Source: a virus (Duplodnaviria; Heunggongvirae; Uroviricota; Caudoviricetes). From it: 7,815 nt of DNA. Shown here piece after piece: positions 2,394 through 7,612 of the stretch (positions are counted from its first letter, which is position 1; every line of letters begins with the position of its first letter). The notes below the pieces were generated by a model. It made no database searches. It was not told the DNA's origin and saw only the letters and a list, made by a program, of their open reading frames with translations. The DNA lies in the IMG/VR virus record IMGVR_UViG_2690316227_000004. One strand, 5' to 3'. The position numbers were made by a program, and so were the translations under genes.

Positions 2394-4305
2394 TCACTCC
2401 TCCGGACAGCTTCGCTGCCAGTTCTTTCAGGGTTGGCCGGGTCGTCTCTTCTTCCCGGGATTTTGCCAGTACAGCCAGATCAAGCTGCCAGCGTTGCACG
2501 GACACACGTAATGCCGCGTAGGCATACACCAGGCAGTCCAGCGCTTCGTTACGCCGCTTTTTGTTATCCCACAGCAGACGCATCTTTCCTTTTTCCCACT
2601 TCTCCACCAGCTCTTCCGCCACCAGTTGCTGCGCCTCTGTCTGCGAAAAAATCTCCGGATCATCAGGAAAACGGATGGCATACGACGTGGCTTCATCCGC
2701 AGGCGAGGGATCGGCTTTCATACGGGCATAGAGAATTTCTTTTGCGGTGTCCGTTCCCACTTCACACAGATACACGCCCCGCTGATTGCGGGTTTTTGGC
2801 ATGGTGATCACCGGCTTGCCATAGACAGATGCGCCTTTTACCGGCAGCACCCGGAAAACACCGTGTTTTTTTGATCTCTGATAAACAATTTCACCATCGA
2901 TCCCCCCGGTGTCCCAGCAGACACGGGAAATAGTCATTTCGGTGCCATCCGCATGGCGGTATTTTTTGTTGATCGCCGCATCCACACGTAACAGCGTCTC
3001 TTCCTCATCAGGACGCCCCATAATGATGATTTTATCCACCAGAAAGGCTTCCTCTCCCGGAGCCCATCCCCAGACATACATCTCAAAACGGTTTCGCTGC
3101 GAGTCAATGCCCGCCGTCAGATAAACCACCCGGGCAGGCACCGCCGCCGTGTAACGCACCACCTTATCCATCAGTACCTGGTGATCGAGTTTTTCGCCCA
3201 CGGCCTCTTCCCAGGTCTCGCCCAGCGTGGTGTTCACAAAGGTTTTCAGGCCGTTGGGATCTTTCAGTGCATCCAGCCAGTCATAGACAATCTGTACCCA
3301 GGTGGTGAACGGACTGTACGCCGTCCAGATATGGAACGTGATGGAGCGCGGCGGCGGAATTTCATCACCCCGGGCGCTGAAAAACGTCAGACCGTCACGG
3401 GTCCACATGCCCGTGTTTTCACAGATCCACCGCCCGTTGCTCTGGTCCAGTTCAGACTGATGGATCACGCAGCCATGATGTTCACAGAGGTAGAAAACAC
3501 TTTCAGGGCTGTCCTTCTCCCATTTAAGCCCAAAAGGCGTGGACTCATCGCCAAATTTCAGATACTGCTCCTCCCCACAGTGCGGGCAGGGCACATAAAA
3601 ACGCATAAAATGCGCCGACTCGTTAGCGGCTTTTTCGATCTGGCAGGTGCCTTTGATTTTAGGCGTCGAGCCGCGAATGGATTTTGGCCACACCGACCCC
3701 TCAATACGCTTATCCCCCAGCAGGGTTGGCGAGCCCTCTTTTTCGACATCCGGCTCGAACGAGGAAAGTTCGTCATAGCAGACCACGTCCACGGATTTTT
3801 CACGGTAGTTTTTGGCGGCAGCGCCGCCCAGGCACCAGAAACCGACGCCCGATGAAAAGCGTTTCAGCGTGAGAGTATTGTCACGATGTTTACGACCCAG
3901 CCATGGGGAAAGGTCTTTCAGGCATGGCACGTTCCGAATCGTCGCCTCCACGTGAGACTTCATAAAATCTTCAGCGGCAGAATCCGTGGGCTGAAAAAGC
4001 AGACTGTTTCGGGATTTATGCTCAATAAAATACCCGACCACCCCCAGCAACATCTTTGTATAGCCAACACGGGCAGATTTAATCAGATTAACAGTGCGGA
4101 TCTGATCATTCCCCATGCTGTTCATGATGGCGATCTGGAATGGCAGCGTTTTCCATTCGCCCTCACCATATGAAGATTCTTTAGGCAGATAATAATTTTG
4201 ATCAGCCCATTCAACTGGCGTCACCGGCAATGCCCTTATCAGGGGCTGTAATGCAGTTGTGACAGCGCTCATCATATTATTCAGTTGTTGCTCTGATATA
4301 TTCAT
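2377..4305 (-). CDS. A: Terminase large subunit (lambda gpA-like), 642 aa from ATG at 4303-4305
   Basis: Long collinear similarity to lambda gpA (VEWAD.NYYLPKES.Y.EG.W.TLPFQ.AIMN.MG.D.IR.VN..KSARVGY.KMLLGV..YFIEHK..., CPHCGEEQYLKFGD, WDTGGID, KRRNEALDC.VYA.AALR). The track ORF starts at a TTG 19 codons upstream (4360-4362); the first ATG (MNISEQQ..) aligns with the lambda gpA N-terminus (MNISNSQ..), so it is taken as the start. Overlaps the end of Nu1 as in lambda. Confidence 0.93.
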   Translation of the reverse strand: MNISEQQLNNMMSAVTTALQPLIRALPVTPVEWADQNYYLPKESSYGEGEWKTLPFQIAIMNSMGNDQIRTVNLIKSARVGYTKMLLGVVGYFIEHKSRNSLLFQPTDSAAEDFMKSHVEATIRNVPCLKDLSPWLGRKHRDNTLTLKRFSSGVGFWCLGGAAAKNYREKSVDVVCYDELSSFEPDVEKEGSPTLLGDKRIEGSVWPKSIRGSTPKIKGTCQIEKAANESAHFMRFYVPCPHCGEEQYLKFGDESTPFGLKWEKDSPESVFYLCEHHGCVIHQSELDQSNGRWICENTGMWTRDGLTFFSARGDEIPPPRSITFHIWTAYSPFTTWVQIVYDWLDALKDPNGLKTFVNTTLGETWEEAVGEKLDHQVLMDKVVRYTAAVPARVVYLTAGIDSQRNRFEMYVWGWAPGEEAFLVDKIIIMGRPDEEETLLRVDAAINKKYRHADGTEMTISRVCWDTGGIDGEIVYQRSKKHGVFRVLPVKGASVYGKPVITMPKTRNQRGVYLCEVGTDTAKEILYARMKADPSPADEATSYAIRFPDDPEIFSQTEAQQLVAEELVEKWEKGKMRLLWDNKKRRNEALDCLVYAYAALRVSVQRWQLDLAVLAKSREEETTRPTLKELAAKLSGGVNGYSR

Positions 4306-4810: not shown

Positions 4811-4964
4811 GCGATACAACAACCATGTGTTTTTACAAAACCATTTGATATCATTTACATTTTTCGCATTGACGACATCAAAACACATCGTAAGGTTGTT
4901 GTATTTATTTTATTTTCACCTTACTTATCAATTAGATATACCAAACAATTAAACAACAACTCCC
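4811..4964 (-). promoter_or_regulatory. cosB-like terminase small-subunit binding region: three copies of an ACAACAAC-type element (R3/R2/R1-like) with an AT-rich spacer
   Basis: Between cosN and the Nu1 start there are three related elements: + strand 4942-4962 (caaacaattaaacaacaac), 4894-4903 (ggttgttgta, inverted) and 4814-4824 (atacaacaacc). Sites 2 and 3 belong to a longer imperfect inverted repeat (4814-4835 vs 4880-4906). The two-direct-plus-one-inverted layout, the AT-rich stretch 4904-4950 and the spacing to cosN and Nu1 mirror lambda cosB (R3-I1-R2-R1), though the motif is not lambda's. Confidence 0.55.
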
Positions 4965-4993
4965 CCTCAAAAAATCTCATAAATAGCGAAAAC

Positions 4994-5015
4994 CCGCGAG
5001 GTCGCCGCCCCGTAA
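4994..5015 (-). other. cosN nicking site; 12-nt cohesive end GGGCGGCGACCT (minus strand) at 4999-5010
   Basis: The reverse complement of 4981-5010 is GGGCGGCGACCTCGCGGGTTTTCGCTATTT, identical to the lambda left cohesive end and its first bases as recalled. The adjacent bases on the other side (reverse complement of 5011-5040, GGGTCCTTTCCGGCGATCCGGGCCGTTACG) closely match the lambda right end (GGGTCCTTTCCGGTGATCCGACAGGTTACG). Confidence 0.9.
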
Positions 5016-5070
5016 CGGCCCGGATCGCCGGAAAGGACCCGCTAAAATGATAATGGTTATCAGTTGCAGC
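5016..5070 (-). other. Conserved genome right-end segment upstream of cosN (expected to contain cosQ)
   Basis: Minus strand reads ..GATAACCATTATCATTTTAGCGGGTCCTTTCCGGCGATCCGGGCCGTTACG, resembling the lambda right end ..GATAATCATTATCACTTTACGGGTCCTTTCCGGTGATCCGACAGGTTACG. The exact cosQ boundaries were not determined. Confidence 0.5.
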
Positions 5071-5332
5071 AAATCCAGTTTCTTCCACCATCGCACCGGA
5101 CCAGCGACCATGAGGGGACAACGCCGCGCTCCGTTTACGCGGTAAACCCCGGTGTGTATCGTTTTTGATTATCCCCGCACACTCGCGCAGAGGAGTCTCC
5201 CTGTCGGGCTGCGGTCTCTGTTAATGAGGGAATACAGCGACGATACAGCGCATGATGTGTCAGGCTTGAATACCTTTATCCGTTAAAAGGGATATCAGTT
5301 AAGTTATCCCGTGTAGGGTATAAGCCATTATC

Positions 5333-5355
5333 AAGCCCACCAGTAGATGGGCTTT
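5333..5355. other. Stem-loop (7-bp stem, 8-nt loop) just downstream of the 85-aa ORF stop; possible weak terminator
   Basis: aagccca(5333-5339) / tgggctt(5348-5354) form a perfect 7-bp stem. No strong U-tract follows on the minus strand (GAUAAUGG); only a short T run follows on the + strand. Function is uncertain. Confidence 0.25.
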
Positions 5356-5362
5356 GTAATGG

Positions 5363-5620
5363 CTACTTCGCTTTTGCTTCCGCTCGCTTACGCCGGCGCT
5401 CTTCTTTCCTCTCGGCTTTTGCCATGTCCATGAATGCCTGCATGATCGAGTTCCGCATCATGTAGCTAACAAAGTGATGATTGACACAGCCGTTGAGGCG
5501 CAGCTGCTCGCCAAACTCATCCACCGAGGCCAATGCTTCCATCATACCCTTCTCGCCTTTCATGAACTCTGAGAAGTCGCGCCCCGCTCTGGAGGCGCAT
5601 TCAATGACACGATCACTCAT
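5363..5620 (-). CDS. Hypothetical small protein (85 aa) with a highly basic Lys/Arg/Glu-rich C-terminal tail; translationally coupled to the upstream KilA-N-like gene
   Basis: ORF with ATG at 5618-5620 overlapping the upstream gene's stop (ATGA). The C-terminus is AKAERKEERRRKRAEAKAK. No family recognised from memory. The coding call rests on the coupling and on its position in an otherwise gene-dense phage segment. Confidence 0.6.
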   Translation of the reverse strand: MSDRVIECASRAGRDFSEFMKGEKGMMEALASVDEFGEQLRLNGCVNHHFVSYMMRNSIMQAFMDMAKAERKEERRRKRAEAKAK

Positions 5621-6114
5621 CCCGGAAGCCCGGGGATCGAAATCTGCAACTGGTTAGCCAGGGAGTTAATTTCAGCGATCAAACCAGGTTTCGTGTAGCG
5701 CCATGCCGCGAGGCCTTGTCCACAGAAGCTCGCCATGTCTTTTTTCTGATCAAACTCATGACATTTCATGTTGAGCTGCGCACTTAAGCTGTTCCGATGA
5801 TGAAGCTCTCCGGTGAAGTAATCATCGAGGACTTTATAGGCTGCATATTTAAATCCGGGGTTTAGCCATGCTGCGTAATCATAAGCAACGAACTTTCCGC
5901 CATAAGTTCCACCGTGCGCACCGCGTTCCGTAAAAACCACAGATTCGTGGTTTTTCTCCAGCTCAGCCAAGAACTCTTTGGTCTGCTTGTTTCGCAGGTA
6001 GTGGTACGGAGATTCAGATTCACTTTTACCACTGGCTTTCCACATATCAGTGAGGCAGATCATGCCATCTTCACCGATACGGATTGGTTGATTGAAGAGG
6101 GTTAATGATTTCAT
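5617..6114 (-). CDS. KilA-N-like domain protein (putative DNA-binding accessory/moron protein), 165 aa
   Basis: ATG at 6112-6114. The N-terminal region IRIGEDGMICLTDMWKASGK....YLRNKQTKEFLAEL...GG.GTYG..FVAYDYAAWLNPGFKYAAYKVLDDY fits the pattern I recall for KilA-N/APSES-type domains. The assignment is from memory, not a search. Confidence 0.6.
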   Translation of the reverse strand: MKSLTLFNQPIRIGEDGMICLTDMWKASGKSESESPYHYLRNKQTKEFLAELEKNHESVVFTERGAHGGTYGGKFVAYDYAAWLNPGFKYAAYKVLDDYFTGELHHRNSLSAQLNMKCHEFDQKKDMASFCGQGLAAWRYTKPGLIAEINSLANQLQISIPGLPG

Positions 6115-6229
6115 AGCGTGTACCTACTCTTTGAAATGAACCTTTGCCGCACAGGAAACCAGCCCACCGAGGCTCGCCAGCACTAACTGGTATCCTCAAA
6201 GGCCCATTCCAAAGGGGCAGGTTCGGTGT

Positions 6230-6254
6230 AAAAAACATGCGTTGCGGTACGCAT
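6230..6254 (-). terminator. Rho-independent terminator (distal of a tandem pair downstream of Rz)
   Basis: Minus-strand RNA AUGCGU-ACCGCA-ACGCAU (perfect 6-bp stem, 6-nt loop) followed by G then UUUUUU (+ strand A-run 6230-6235). Confidence 0.55.
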
Positions 6255-6261
6255 TTATTGC

Positions 6262-6285
6262 AAAAAGCCCCGCATCGCGAGGCTC
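6262..6285 (-). terminator. Rho-independent terminator (proximal of a tandem pair downstream of Rz)
   Basis: Minus-strand RNA AGCCUCGC-GAU-GCGGGGCU (7-8 bp GC-rich stem with one G-U pair) followed by UUUUU, about 30 nt after the Rz stop. Confidence 0.6.
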
Positions 6286-6316
6286 ATTAAATGGACTTTG
6301 TGATTTGCAAAAAAAA

Positions 6317-6754
6317 TTATTTCAGGCATTGCGTCCTGATGTACTCCTGCAGGTAGTTAACCTGCGCGGTTATCTTGTCGATTCCACCTCGGAGACGGTA
6401 ATAATTGAGTTCAGCATCTGCTGTAAGTCCTGGGCTTTCTCCATCGCCCATGCTGCTGGCTCCGGTCGTTGACTTTGCACAGGTGGCGGAGACTTGCAGG
6501 CGCTTACGCCCAGCAGAAACATCAGCACGGAGACTTTCGATAGTCGCATTAGCATCAGCAAGCTCCTTTGTGTATCTGGCGTCAAGTTCTGCTACATCAC
6601 GTTGCCGCTTCTGCATATCAGCGATGATGGATGTGGCTTTATCGCGCTGCTCTTTGTAGGCGATGGCGTTATCACGGTAATGATTAACAGCCCATGAAAG
6701 GCAGACGATGAGGCAGATGACCAGAACGTAGATAATCGCGGTTACTCTGCTCAT
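6317..6754 (-). CDS. Rz: Spanin inner-membrane subunit (i-spanin, lambda Rz-like), 145 aa from ATG at 6752-6754
   Basis: [39 protein letters not shown]... is nearly identical at the N-terminus to lambda Rz ([39 protein letters not shown]) and shares YTKELADA and a C-terminal QC. The track ORF begins 4 codons upstream at GTG; the ATG overlapping the endolysin stop (ATGA) is preferred. Confidence 0.92.
6370..6555 (-). CDS. Rz1: Spanin outer-membrane lipoprotein subunit (o-spanin, Rz1-like), 61 aa, fully embedded in Rz in the +1 frame
   Basis: [20 protein letters not shown]|[16 protein letters not shown]... has a signal peptide, a lipobox (VSAC) and a Pro-rich mature region, as in lambda Rz1. 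AAGGAG lies 7 nt upstream of ATG 6553-6555. The track ORF start at 6583-6585 is a TTG. Confidence 0.8.
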
Positions 6755-7248
6755 TGTTGCCCCCACAAACAGACTTCACGCTCAATCTCACGGCGAGTCA
6801 TCAGCCCTTTCCATTGCTTACCGCCAGCGTATGTCCAGCGCCGTAGCTGATCACATGCGCCTTTGATATCGCCCTGGTTTATTTTGCGAAGAAGCGTCGA
6901 TGTTCTGAAATTGCCAGCGCCCACGTTGTAAACGAACGAGTAAAGAGCGCCGCGCGTTGTTTCCGGTATATCGACTTTGATGTACGGGTTTATTTGTCTG
7001 GCGACCGTGGCAAGGTCTTTATTCAGGAGGGCTTTGCATTCTGCTTCGGTATACGTTTTACCGGGCATGATGTCTTTTCCGGTGTGTCCATGACATACAG
7101 TCCATACGCCAACGATATCTTCGTATGGTATGTAGCTGACACCTTCCAGGCCATCGTCACCACTCGGACCAGTGATGAGCACAGACGCTATGGCAACAGC
7201 CCCACCACCAATAGCAGCAGCAACGGCTTTTCGTAATGATGGAGGCAT
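6751..7248 (-). CDS. R: SAR (signal-anchor-release) endolysin, T4-lysozyme-type muramidase (phage 21 R21-like), 165 aa
   Basis: The N-terminus [30 protein letters not shown] is a Gly/Ala-rich weakly hydrophobic SAR domain. It is followed by an E-x8-D-x5-T catalytic arrangement ([17 protein letters not shown]). The sequence is near-identical to the phage 21 endolysin as I recall it. The start ATG overlaps the holin stop (TAATG). Confidence 0.93.
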
Positions 7249-7499: not shown

Positions 7500-7534
7500 A
7501 AAACAAAAAGCCGCCAGTGTCGCCCACTGACGGC
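7500..7534 (-). terminator. Strong rho-independent terminator 45 nt upstream of the holin ATG (tR'-like terminator of the late leader)
   Basis: Minus-strand RNA GCCGUCAGUG-GGCGA-CACUGGCGGC (10-bp stem with one G-U pair, 5-nt loop) followed by UUUUUGUUUU. In lambdoid phages the late promoter pR' is followed by a leader ending in tR', which Q-modified polymerase reads through. Confidence 0.7.
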
Positions 7535-7612
7535 CAACGCCGGGAGCCGTGATTATGGCATTCAGGCTCTGCTAAAAATGCCAGATAACATTCCGGCTCC
7601 CCCCTGATTCAG

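Follow-up and report, generated by a model that had tools for sequence, protein, structure and literature searches.

The minus strand of the 7,815-nt caudoviral sequence analysed here (IMG/VR record IMGVR_UViG_2690316227_000004; hereafter the window) carries, between the lysis gene Rz and a downstream KilA-N + ORF11CD3 gene, what comparative analysis identifies as a single conserved structured RNA of ~140 nt (positions 6254-6123). The RNA is composed of a 5' hairpin (P0), a linker, and a long stem (P1-P2-P2b) with a small additional hairpin (P3), followed by the Shine-Dalgarno (SD) sequence and ATG of the next gene, and it is closed by two pseudoknots (PK1 and PK2). We consider its most likely function, with a probability of roughly 0.55, to be that of a cis-acting translational gate on the phage late transcript, a reading that draws on predicted structure at the ribosome-binding site. 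A first-pass annotation of the same region had described two consecutive intrinsic terminators followed by a leader without an obvious promoter; the comparative data presented below recast the second terminator as part of the RNA. All coordinates of the element refer to the minus strand.

Fold and covariation of the leader RNA

The structure was built by hand on the window sequence and projected onto a MAFFT alignment of 54 members that are mutually less than 94% identical. Among these, 27 pairs changed on both sides, as compared to 17.3 in shuffled alignments (0/500), a count that is underestimated for P3 and P1 in types 2 and 3, where MAFFT aligned the register of these helices only roughly. 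The covariation score was 0.210, versus 0.092 in shuffles and 0.05-0.07 in slid controls. An independent covariance-model alignment yielded two-sided changes in 16 of 33 pairs (7.4 in column shuffles, 0/500; 1-5 with slid partners), and RNAalifold likewise showed compensatory changes. The 231-nt region as a whole folds more stably than its shuffles (z = -2.64). G-U pairs are frequent and are compatible only with the gene-sense strand. P2 and P2b are 91.4% paired and show two-sided changes in 7 of 9 pairs (e.g. ACCAG:CUGGU replaced by GUCAG:CUGAC).

PK1 joins the P0 loop to the 3' internal loop between P2 and P1, to which it is complementary (6247-6243 with 6151-6147 in the window); 94.3% of cells are paired and 4 of 5 pairs show two-sided changes. 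Mean duplex energy with a member's own partner is -8.62 kcal/mol, as compared to -5.84 kcal/mol with the partners of other members, a difference matched in 0 of 10,000 permutations. At least eight co-varying versions occur, including CCGCA:UGCGG (the window and P22), ACCGCAAU:AUUGCGG, UCGCAU:AUGCGA, UCACAC:GUGUGA, UCUCAC:GUGAGA, UCGCAC:GUGCGA, ACGCCC:GGGCGU, and UGCCC:GGGCA. PK2 joins the linker immediately 5' of the long stem to the complementary apical loop (6228-6223 with 6170-6165); it is 97.5% paired, with two-sided changes in 4 of 6 pairs, and one of its column pairs takes all four Watson-Crick forms (AU 25, GC 14, UA 8, CG 6). Duplex energies are -11.54 kcal/mol with the member's own partner and -9.05 kcal/mol with those of other members (again 0/10,000 permutations), and at least twelve co-varying versions are found, among them CCACCGA:UCGGUGG, CGUCGA:UCGACG, CAUCGA:UCGAUG, CACAGA:UCUGUG, CUCAGA:UCUGAG, CCAAGA:UCUUGG, CCACAGAG:CUCUGUGG, CCCCGAG:CUCGGGG, and GAAAGU:ACUUUC.

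The partner strands lie ~95 nt (PK1) and ~55 nt (PK2) apart, and the two pseudoknots assort independently. Two loci (L183:2512-2685 and L118:4272-4446) carry recombinants in which the P0 loop derives from one subtype and the body from another, with PK1 weakened to -5.4 and -5.5 kcal/mol, respectively; as judged from these sequences, recombination does happen inside the linker. Because PK1 and PK2 assort independently and recombinants with a mismatched P0 exist, linkage alone cannot account for the pseudoknot pattern. Covariation thus supports the fold and both pseudoknots as real. The components of the element in the window are as follows.

6237-6254, minus strand: P0 hairpin, whose loop 6247-6243 (CCGCA) is the 5' strand of PK1 (PK1 covariation and permutation test)
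6230-6235, minus strand: run of six U in the linker between P0 and PK2, lineage-specific according to family alignments
6223-6228, minus strand: 5' strand of PK2 (CACCGA), pairing with apical loop 6170-6165 (duplex energies, covariation)
6217-6221, minus strand: anti-SD segment CCUGC, pairing with 6127-6123 (two C-G pairs kept in all type-1 rows; columns 47-48 with 151-152; the homologous CC of types 2 and 3 is part of CCUUU, paired with AAAGG)
6197-6214, minus strand: 5' strand of P1, an 18-bp helix with 6146-6129 (folding, alignment; some G-U pairs would be C-A mismatches on the opposite strand)
6187-6196, minus strand: 5' strands of P2 (AGGA, 6196-6193) and P2b (ACCAG, 6191-6187) (covariation)
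6172-6181, minus strand: P3 mini-hairpin GCU-GGCG-AGC within the apical loop, weakly supported
6165-6170, minus strand: 3' strand of PK2 (UCGGUG) (duplex energies, covariation)
6153-6162, minus strand: 3' strands of P2b (CUGGU, 6162-6158) and P2 (UCCU, 6156-6153) (alignment)
6147-6151, minus strand: 3' strand of PK1 (UGCGG), in the 3'-side internal loop between P2 and P1 (duplex energies, covariation)
6129-6146, minus strand: 3' strand of P1 (alignment)
6123-6127, minus strand: SD region GUAGG of the KilA-N gene, predicted to be paired (partition-function folding)

Junctions between helices are 0-2 nt in length, with one nucleotide, C or U, following PK1. Across types, only a few unpaired bases remain invariant, so shape rather than a ligand pocket seems to be selected. 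P3 is 63.5% paired in the mixed-type alignment, with equivalents in types 2 and 3 recognizable by eye. The apical hairpin of the minimum free energy prediction (AGCCU-CGGU-GGGCU) was dropped in favour of PK2 and P3 on the covariation evidence. A short motif, (A)UUUCA(C/U), occurs 6-10 nt 5' of P0 in all three subtypes though not in the lineage of the window, and no pairing partner for it was identified. The GC-rich dyads pointed out in the first-pass annotation, of which CCAG..CTGG is indeed present (ACCAG 6191-6187 with CUGGU 6162-6158), are in light of the alignments helices and pseudoknot strands of the RNA, not operator-like DNA sites.

Partition-function folding gave, as means of 52 members, an unpaired probability of 0.02-0.03 for the GG of the SD versus 0.87 for the AUG, and the GG was predicted to be paired in all 52 members scored. 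In the window, CCUGC (6221-6217) pairs with GUAGG (6127-6123), and PK2 ends 1 nt before the CC of this segment, while in types 2 and 3 the last five P1 pairs (CCUUU:AAAGG) are those of the SD itself. A leader peptide or N-terminal extension was considered and rejected: the reading frame in phase with the ATG closes within five codons or fewer in 27 of 54 members, 1-nt indels occur, and no conserved open reading frame (ORF) runs through the element in these 54 members. In P22 (L004, NC_002371.2), where rha/orf201 (2046-2651) overlaps the element (1977-2117), the annotated GTG start at 39575 lies inside the RNA, and the start codons of all other members line up with an ATG 57 nt downstream, from which a 182-aa protein would be made. 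The 201-aa annotation of P22 orf201/rha is therefore probably too long, an artefact as far as the alignment can tell.

Terminators, promoters, and the route of transcription

The immediate neighbours of the element are as the first-pass annotation had assumed, with Rz upstream and an accessory gene downstream:

6317-6319, minus strand: Rz stop codon TAA, at which the intergenic region begins (ORF 6317-6766; Pfam Phage_lysis, E 1e-34)
6262-6283, minus strand: hairpin 1 with its U5 tract; stem 6283-6267, GCCUCGC-GAU-GCGGGGC, U5 6266-6262; terminator-like
5617-6114, minus strand: KilA-N + ORF11CD3 gene, the cargo downstream of the leader (ATG 6114-6112; Pfam KilA-N, E 7e-16; ORF11CD3, E 2e-12)

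Two minus-strand hairpins with U tracts do occur where that annotation placed them (6283-6262 and 6254-6230), and they fare differently when relatives are compared. Hairpin 1, located 34 nt past the Rz stop codon, has a 7-9 bp stem with six G-C pairs and a folding energy of -13.7 kcal/mol. It was not listed by a consensus terminator scanner, which in our reading may be due to a stem extension that takes up some of the T run. In 230 of 256 copies (90%), the element is preceded at a distance of 10-50 nt by a terminator-like hairpin and T tract, with many unrelated stem sequences, and the same feature has been annotated by other groups as a rho-independent terminator in HK544, Emek, and ES18. Because hairpins of unrelated sequence hold this position in 90% of relatives, hairpin 1 is best regarded as a plain terminator; that it is an ordinary intrinsic terminator, closing the lysis cassette to unmodified polymerase, is a credible reading of these sequences. 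The Rz-proximal segment that includes it travels with Rz (e.g. in HK97 and HK446).

Two further hairpins were observed in the window. A third small hairpin at the end of Rz (6339-6322, minus strand; UCAGG-ACGCAAUG-CCUGA) is followed by AAUAA and U8 (6316-6309) across the stop codon, the whole spanning 6309-6339, and is kept along with Rz in HK97-like phages. The strongest terminator-like hairpin of the window (7509-7535, minus strand; 11 bp, seven G-C, then UUUUUGUUUU) lies upstream of the holin gene.

Hairpin 2 (AUGCGU-ACCGCA-ACGCAU, 6254-6237, then G and U6 at 6235-6230) is helix P0 of the double-pseudoknot RNA, and its equivalence to hairpin 1 as a terminator is not supported. While the hairpin itself is universal, a T run of five or more follows it in only 42 of 256 copies, corresponding to 12 of 149 distinct sequences, and an A/C-rich linker takes the place of the U run in the P22, ES18, and Klebsiella-phage versions. 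The alignments indicate that U6 is a lineage-specific linker variant that gives P0 the look of a terminator. It is very improbable that the region consists, as first proposed, of two independent intrinsic terminators and an ordinary leader, either unstructured or holding a promoter. Both hairpins do have U runs, and P0 with U6 could terminate some transcription here and, judging from its sequence, may act as a weak second terminator in this lineage; the covariation nonetheless contradicts such a reading, partners 95 and 55 nt further downstream changing in step with the P0 loop and the linker, respectively. In addition, the U run is missing in most relatives, P0 is weak (6 bp, three G-C, -6.9 kcal/mol), and no promoter is present.

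The absence of a sigma-70 promoter from 6115-6229, reported in the first-pass annotation, was borne out more widely: no pair of -35/-10 hexamers with 16-18 bp spacing was found on either strand of 6050-6400 (mean of 0.5 in shuffles), contrary to the moron model, and no hexamer pair is conserved in the family alignment when inspected by eye, including the interval between terminator and P0. As the conserved RNA starts 10-20 nt past the terminator, there is no space for a promoter. Furthermore, the P0 loop and linker co-vary with distant 3' parts, and the 5' parts of the element must therefore be transcribed. A cassette without a promoter whose 5' elements are necessarily transcribed points to expression by read-through of Q-modified polymerase. 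Of the two options left by the first-pass annotation, the comparative data thus favour expression of the cassette only within the Q-antiterminated late transcript, and speak against a promoter-bearing or passive leader.

Distribution, cargo genes, and genomic setting

A search of phage records with the 231-nt region revealed ~93% identity between the stretch running from hairpin 2 up to the start codon and the sequence that precedes P22 rha. The element recurs before the Rha-like gene of ES18 and before the HNH gene of Klebsiella phage RothD, where it is located behind tRNA genes and before the holin gene, with no Rz nearby. The 933W-like Shiga toxin 2 (Stx2) phages P13374 and POCJ13 carry two diverged copies, one in the endolysin-Rz interval before ant and one after Rz before rha. 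Other carriers include HK544, Emek, HK620, and HK106, and further variants were found in phages of Salmonella, Shigella, Klebsiella, Enterobacter, Citrobacter, Hafnia, Pantoea, and Providencia. Exact-word scanning of IMG/VR, done twice, gave at least 120 contigs each time, and a covariance model combined with a profile hidden Markov model identified 262 copies distributed over 237 loci, a single phage having as many as three. Counting only the type found in the window, 836 of 5,426 complete E. coli genomes (~15%) carry the element, which is unannotated there save where it overlaps the next coding sequence. A 14-mer scan of genome contigs (596 Gb) used too short a word, and among the matches listed 4 of 120 were real (two Enterobacter, one Symbiopectobacterium, and locus L336).

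The layout is constant throughout: a terminator-like hairpin, then 10-20 nt further on P0, the linker, the composite hairpin, SD, and ATG. In 253 of 262 copies, the start of an ORF of 40 aa or longer lies only a few nt from the 3' end of the element. The encoded proteins form 21 clusters, in which DNA-binding proteins of the antirepressor type and small nucleases predominate; the domains present are Phage_pRha, KilA-N, P22_AR_N, ANT, AntA, ORF11CD3, P63C, HNH_3, T5orf172/MUG113, and TerB. Since the same layout precedes 21 ORF clusters, the leader can be viewed as the constant part of a cassette and the gene as its variable part. Homology between phages breaks at the 3' edge of the element, and cargo genes are exchanged there.

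This mosaic boundary, at which cargo is swapped, together with the mismatched-P0 recombinants in L183 and L118, is what would be expected if the conservation were at the level of DNA, the element serving as a linker at which modules are exchanged by recombination, or as a site bound by a protein. We regard this as having hardly any probability, as compensatory changes preserve pairing, strand-specific G-U pairs are frequent, and the RNA has been detected in vivo. The conservation may well have the further effect of making the element a recombination joint.

Several loci (L127, L177, L223) contain multiple copies, and L088 has three (1352-1487, 3829-3967, and 9812-9942). The slots used in multi-copy phages differ in their neighbours: one follows tRNA genes and leads into a TerB gene, one lies in the R-Rz interval ahead of ant, and one follows Rz and leads into kilA or rha. 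Within one phage, every copy has its own matched pseudoknot sequences, as though kept orthogonal. In L138 (2344-2471 and 2656-2781; also in L141 and L199), two leaders lie ~180 nt apart and the first is not followed by an ORF of at least 40 aa; from the sequence, this first leader looks like a decayed cassette left behind.

No Rfam 15 model matched the region at E <= 1 in a search of the whole window (including Pistol, C4, isrK, twister, HDV-like ribozymes, and riboswitches), and at E <= 10 three variants gave only chance-level matches far under gathering scores, such as miRNA-precursor models on the hairpin. Keyword and sequence-string searches of the literature found the sequence only in the report of the P22 small RNA P22F (PMC13397905) discussed below. 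SD-sequestering structured leaders are a familiar kind of element; within the reach of these searches, the present fold, its spread, and its role as the constant module of promoter-less late cassettes have no earlier description.

The window itself is, by its gene content and similarity, the late region of a Stx-converting lambdoid phage. Over positions 5600-6800 it matches Stx1a phage Stx1_121427 at 100% identity and phages 1717 and 2851 at 99%. Reading along the minus strand, one meets holin, endolysin, Rz/Rz1 (6766-6317), the intergenic region, the KilA-N + ORF11CD3 gene (6114-5617), an 85-aa ORF, a Nu1-type small terminase, the large terminase, and portal. The 85-aa ORF (5363-5620, minus strand) overlaps the kilA stop codon and has no Pfam match; the N-terminal 67 residues of a 161-aa T5orf172/MUG113 protein, encoded behind another copy of the leader in locus L111, resemble it at 41% identity (E 9e-16), and on this similarity it looks like a remnant or a detachable N-terminal module. 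The 474 bp between this ORF and the Nu1-type terminase gene (4889-5362) have no substantial ORF on the gene strand and presumably house cos. Within the large terminase gene (3800-3829, plus strand), there is a weak DicF-like Rfam match at chance level (20 bits versus a gathering score of 48, E 0.89).

Function of the leader and comparison with known systems

Direct observation of the RNA comes from small-RNA sequencing of P22-infected Salmonella, in which P22F was one of ten phage loci detected (Naaz et al. 2026, Noncoding RNA 12:21, PMC13397905). P22F was reported as a novel small RNA without known function, 89 nt in length (AAUGGGCC...AAGGCA) with its 3' end 6 nt before the rha ATG; it was seen in infected cells only, was also reported in vesicles, and was included in a list for validation by RT-PCR using both internal and flanking primers (PMC13397905). 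We find that P22F is the same sequence as positions 6208 to ~6121 of the window, and thus extends from the middle of the P1 5' strand to between SD and AUG; the 5'-most third of the element is missing from it. That paper gives no description of P0, the pseudoknots, the family, the variable cargo, or the connection with the SD (PMC13397905). The ends of P22F indicate that the leader is cut in vivo.

We propose that the leader would be transcribed as part of the Q-antiterminated late (PR') transcript, with Q-modified polymerase passing hairpin 1, where unmodified polymerase would stop after Rz. The read-through properties of Q are established lambda biology. P0, the A/C- or U-rich linker, and the long P1/P2/P2b hairpin with its small P3 would then be transcribed in turn, and PK1 (6247-6243 with 6151-6147) and PK2 (6228-6223 with 6170-6165) would close the fold. 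PK2, 1 nt from the base of the stem, would clamp the CC(UGC):SD pairing, such that the ribosome-binding site would be locked in a stable, compact structure with the AUG left free. By default, translation of potentially harmful KilA-N, Rha, Ant, or nuclease cargo would be held down on an extremely abundant transcript, and translation would need an opening step, either endonucleolytic processing or a trans factor. We infer the direction of the effect (repression), the opening step, and Q read-through.

Several considerations weigh against this proposal. The link between fold and translation is a nearest-neighbour folding prediction computed without pseudoknots, and type 1, including the window, has only 2-5 bp on the SD. 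No conserved alternative 'ON' conformation was found. A very stable structure beside the start codon could instead protect or enhance the mRNA. The ends of P22F, with the 5' end inside the P1 5' strand and the 3' end between SD and AUG, do not fit a simple model; they could reflect excision of the leader, or else a cut that inactivates the downstream mRNA instead of activating it.

The main rival, which we consider possible though doubtful, is that the element is a module for mRNA processing or stability: a nuclease-resistant fold, possibly with an RNase III or RNase E site, that separates the accessory cistron from the lysis mRNA and sets its half-life, any effect on translation being secondary. 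P1 (18 bp), P2 (4 bp), and P2b (5 bp), with their asymmetric 3'-side internal loop, resemble the RNase III signals of phages and form the near-continuous duplex of about two turns characteristic of such signals; the short junctions (0-2 nt) and scarcity of invariant unpaired bases suggest that shape is kept rather than specific contacts, and a discrete 89-nt fragment accumulates during P22 infection. The P22F ends, which are the sole ends known, are nevertheless not those of a 2-nt staggered RNase III cut, and a processing role would leave the constant overlap with the SD unexplained.

That the element is a sensor or catalyst, i.e. a riboswitch responding to a small molecule or second messenger, or else a novel ribozyme that cleaves itself, in which pseudoknot formation is the regulated or catalytic step, appears unlikely. 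A double pseudoknot whose expression platform lies at the SD is what one typically sees in riboswitches, PK1 has the topology of the pistol ribozyme, a phage setting is typical of small ribozymes, and discrete RNA ends occur in vivo. On the other hand, the odds are lowered by the small number of unpaired nucleotides that are invariant across types, as opposed to an invariant ligand-pocket core; no Rfam match was obtained with three variants even at E <= 10, the 21 unrelated cargo clusters share no metabolic or signalling theme, and capture in a standard small-RNA library suggests to us 5'-phosphate rather than ribozyme-type ends.

The authors of the P22F study drew an analogy with IsrK, according to which the processed P22F-like hairpin would be a trans-acting small RNA and its position upstream of a gene incidental. 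This seems quite improbable to us despite the abundant discrete RNA reported in P22 infection and vesicles: copies within one phage differ in pseudoknot and loop sequences (three in L088) and hence have no shared seed, the element always adjoins a start codon and has neither its own promoter nor a 3' terminator, and it does not match the IsrK or C4 models. The prophage anti-small RNAs AgvB and AsxR (Tree et al. 2014) were also considered and set aside, as they lie 3' of PR'/stx, a different locus.

A bolder reading, which we put forward only tentatively, is that the element is a new phage RNA device, namely a ring-closed double-pseudoknot leader switch (ligand-, protein-, or nuclease-triggered, or self-processing) that times or conditions antirepressor-type and nuclease 'moron' genes in temperate phages of Enterobacterales, including Stx phages. 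Regulation of P22 rha by the host factor IHF, as cited in PMC4936722, may be connected to the element, and the leader might be the missing cis element behind this control.

An unannotated RNA of ~140 nt in the late operons of such well-studied phages as P22, HK620, ES18, and the Shiga toxin phages is a candidate for a new Rfam family and for structural study. The reusable cassette of terminator, structured leader, and interchangeable gene accounts for the promoter-less slotting of antirepressor-type and nuclease genes into the late transcript, and provides a handle on how often toxic cargo genes are restrained, including the unexplained Rha/IHF phenotype. In Stx phages, the genes concerned are co-transcribed with lysis and toxin-release functions. 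The annotated start of P22 orf201/rha would be corrected in the process.

Comparison with known systems places the element near several of them. It shares with the pistol ribozyme the strand order of PK1, in which a 5' hairpin loop pairs with the 3' internal-loop side of a two-part second hairpin, as well as being common in phage DNA, but it is ~140 rather than ~50 nt in length, has a second pseudoknot, lacks the ~10 conserved pistol nucleotides and the G-U cleavage site, and has no Rfam match. Like the RNase III hairpins of T7 R1.1 and the lambda N leader, in the latter of which cleavage alters translation, it is a long irregular intercistronic hairpin whose 3' internal loop is asymmetric and which immediately precedes a ribosome-binding site; those hairpins, however, have no pseudoknots or conserved 5' hairpin, and the P22 RNA ends are unlike RNase III cuts. 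In P1/P7 c4-icd-ant and Gifsy-1 isrK-orf45-anrP, translation of an antirepressor-type gene is controlled by a structured RNA encoded immediately before it in the same transcript, as is proposed here, yet C4 and IsrK act by base pairing in trans after processing or termination, whereas the complementarity of the element is internal and it resembles neither in sequence or Rfam model. The preQ1-II and SAM-II riboswitches likewise have a pseudoknot contiguous with a helix that buries the SD (a predicted feature of the element), but differ from it in that the element has few invariant unpaired bases, heterogeneous downstream genes, and no suggested ligand. Finally, these cassettes resemble the lambdoid morons (Juhala et al. 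2000) in being accessory genes bounded by terminators in late-operon slots (after PR'/tRNAs, between R and Rz, and between Rz and terminase); whereas a classical moron has its own promoter, they have none and carry a conserved structured leader instead.

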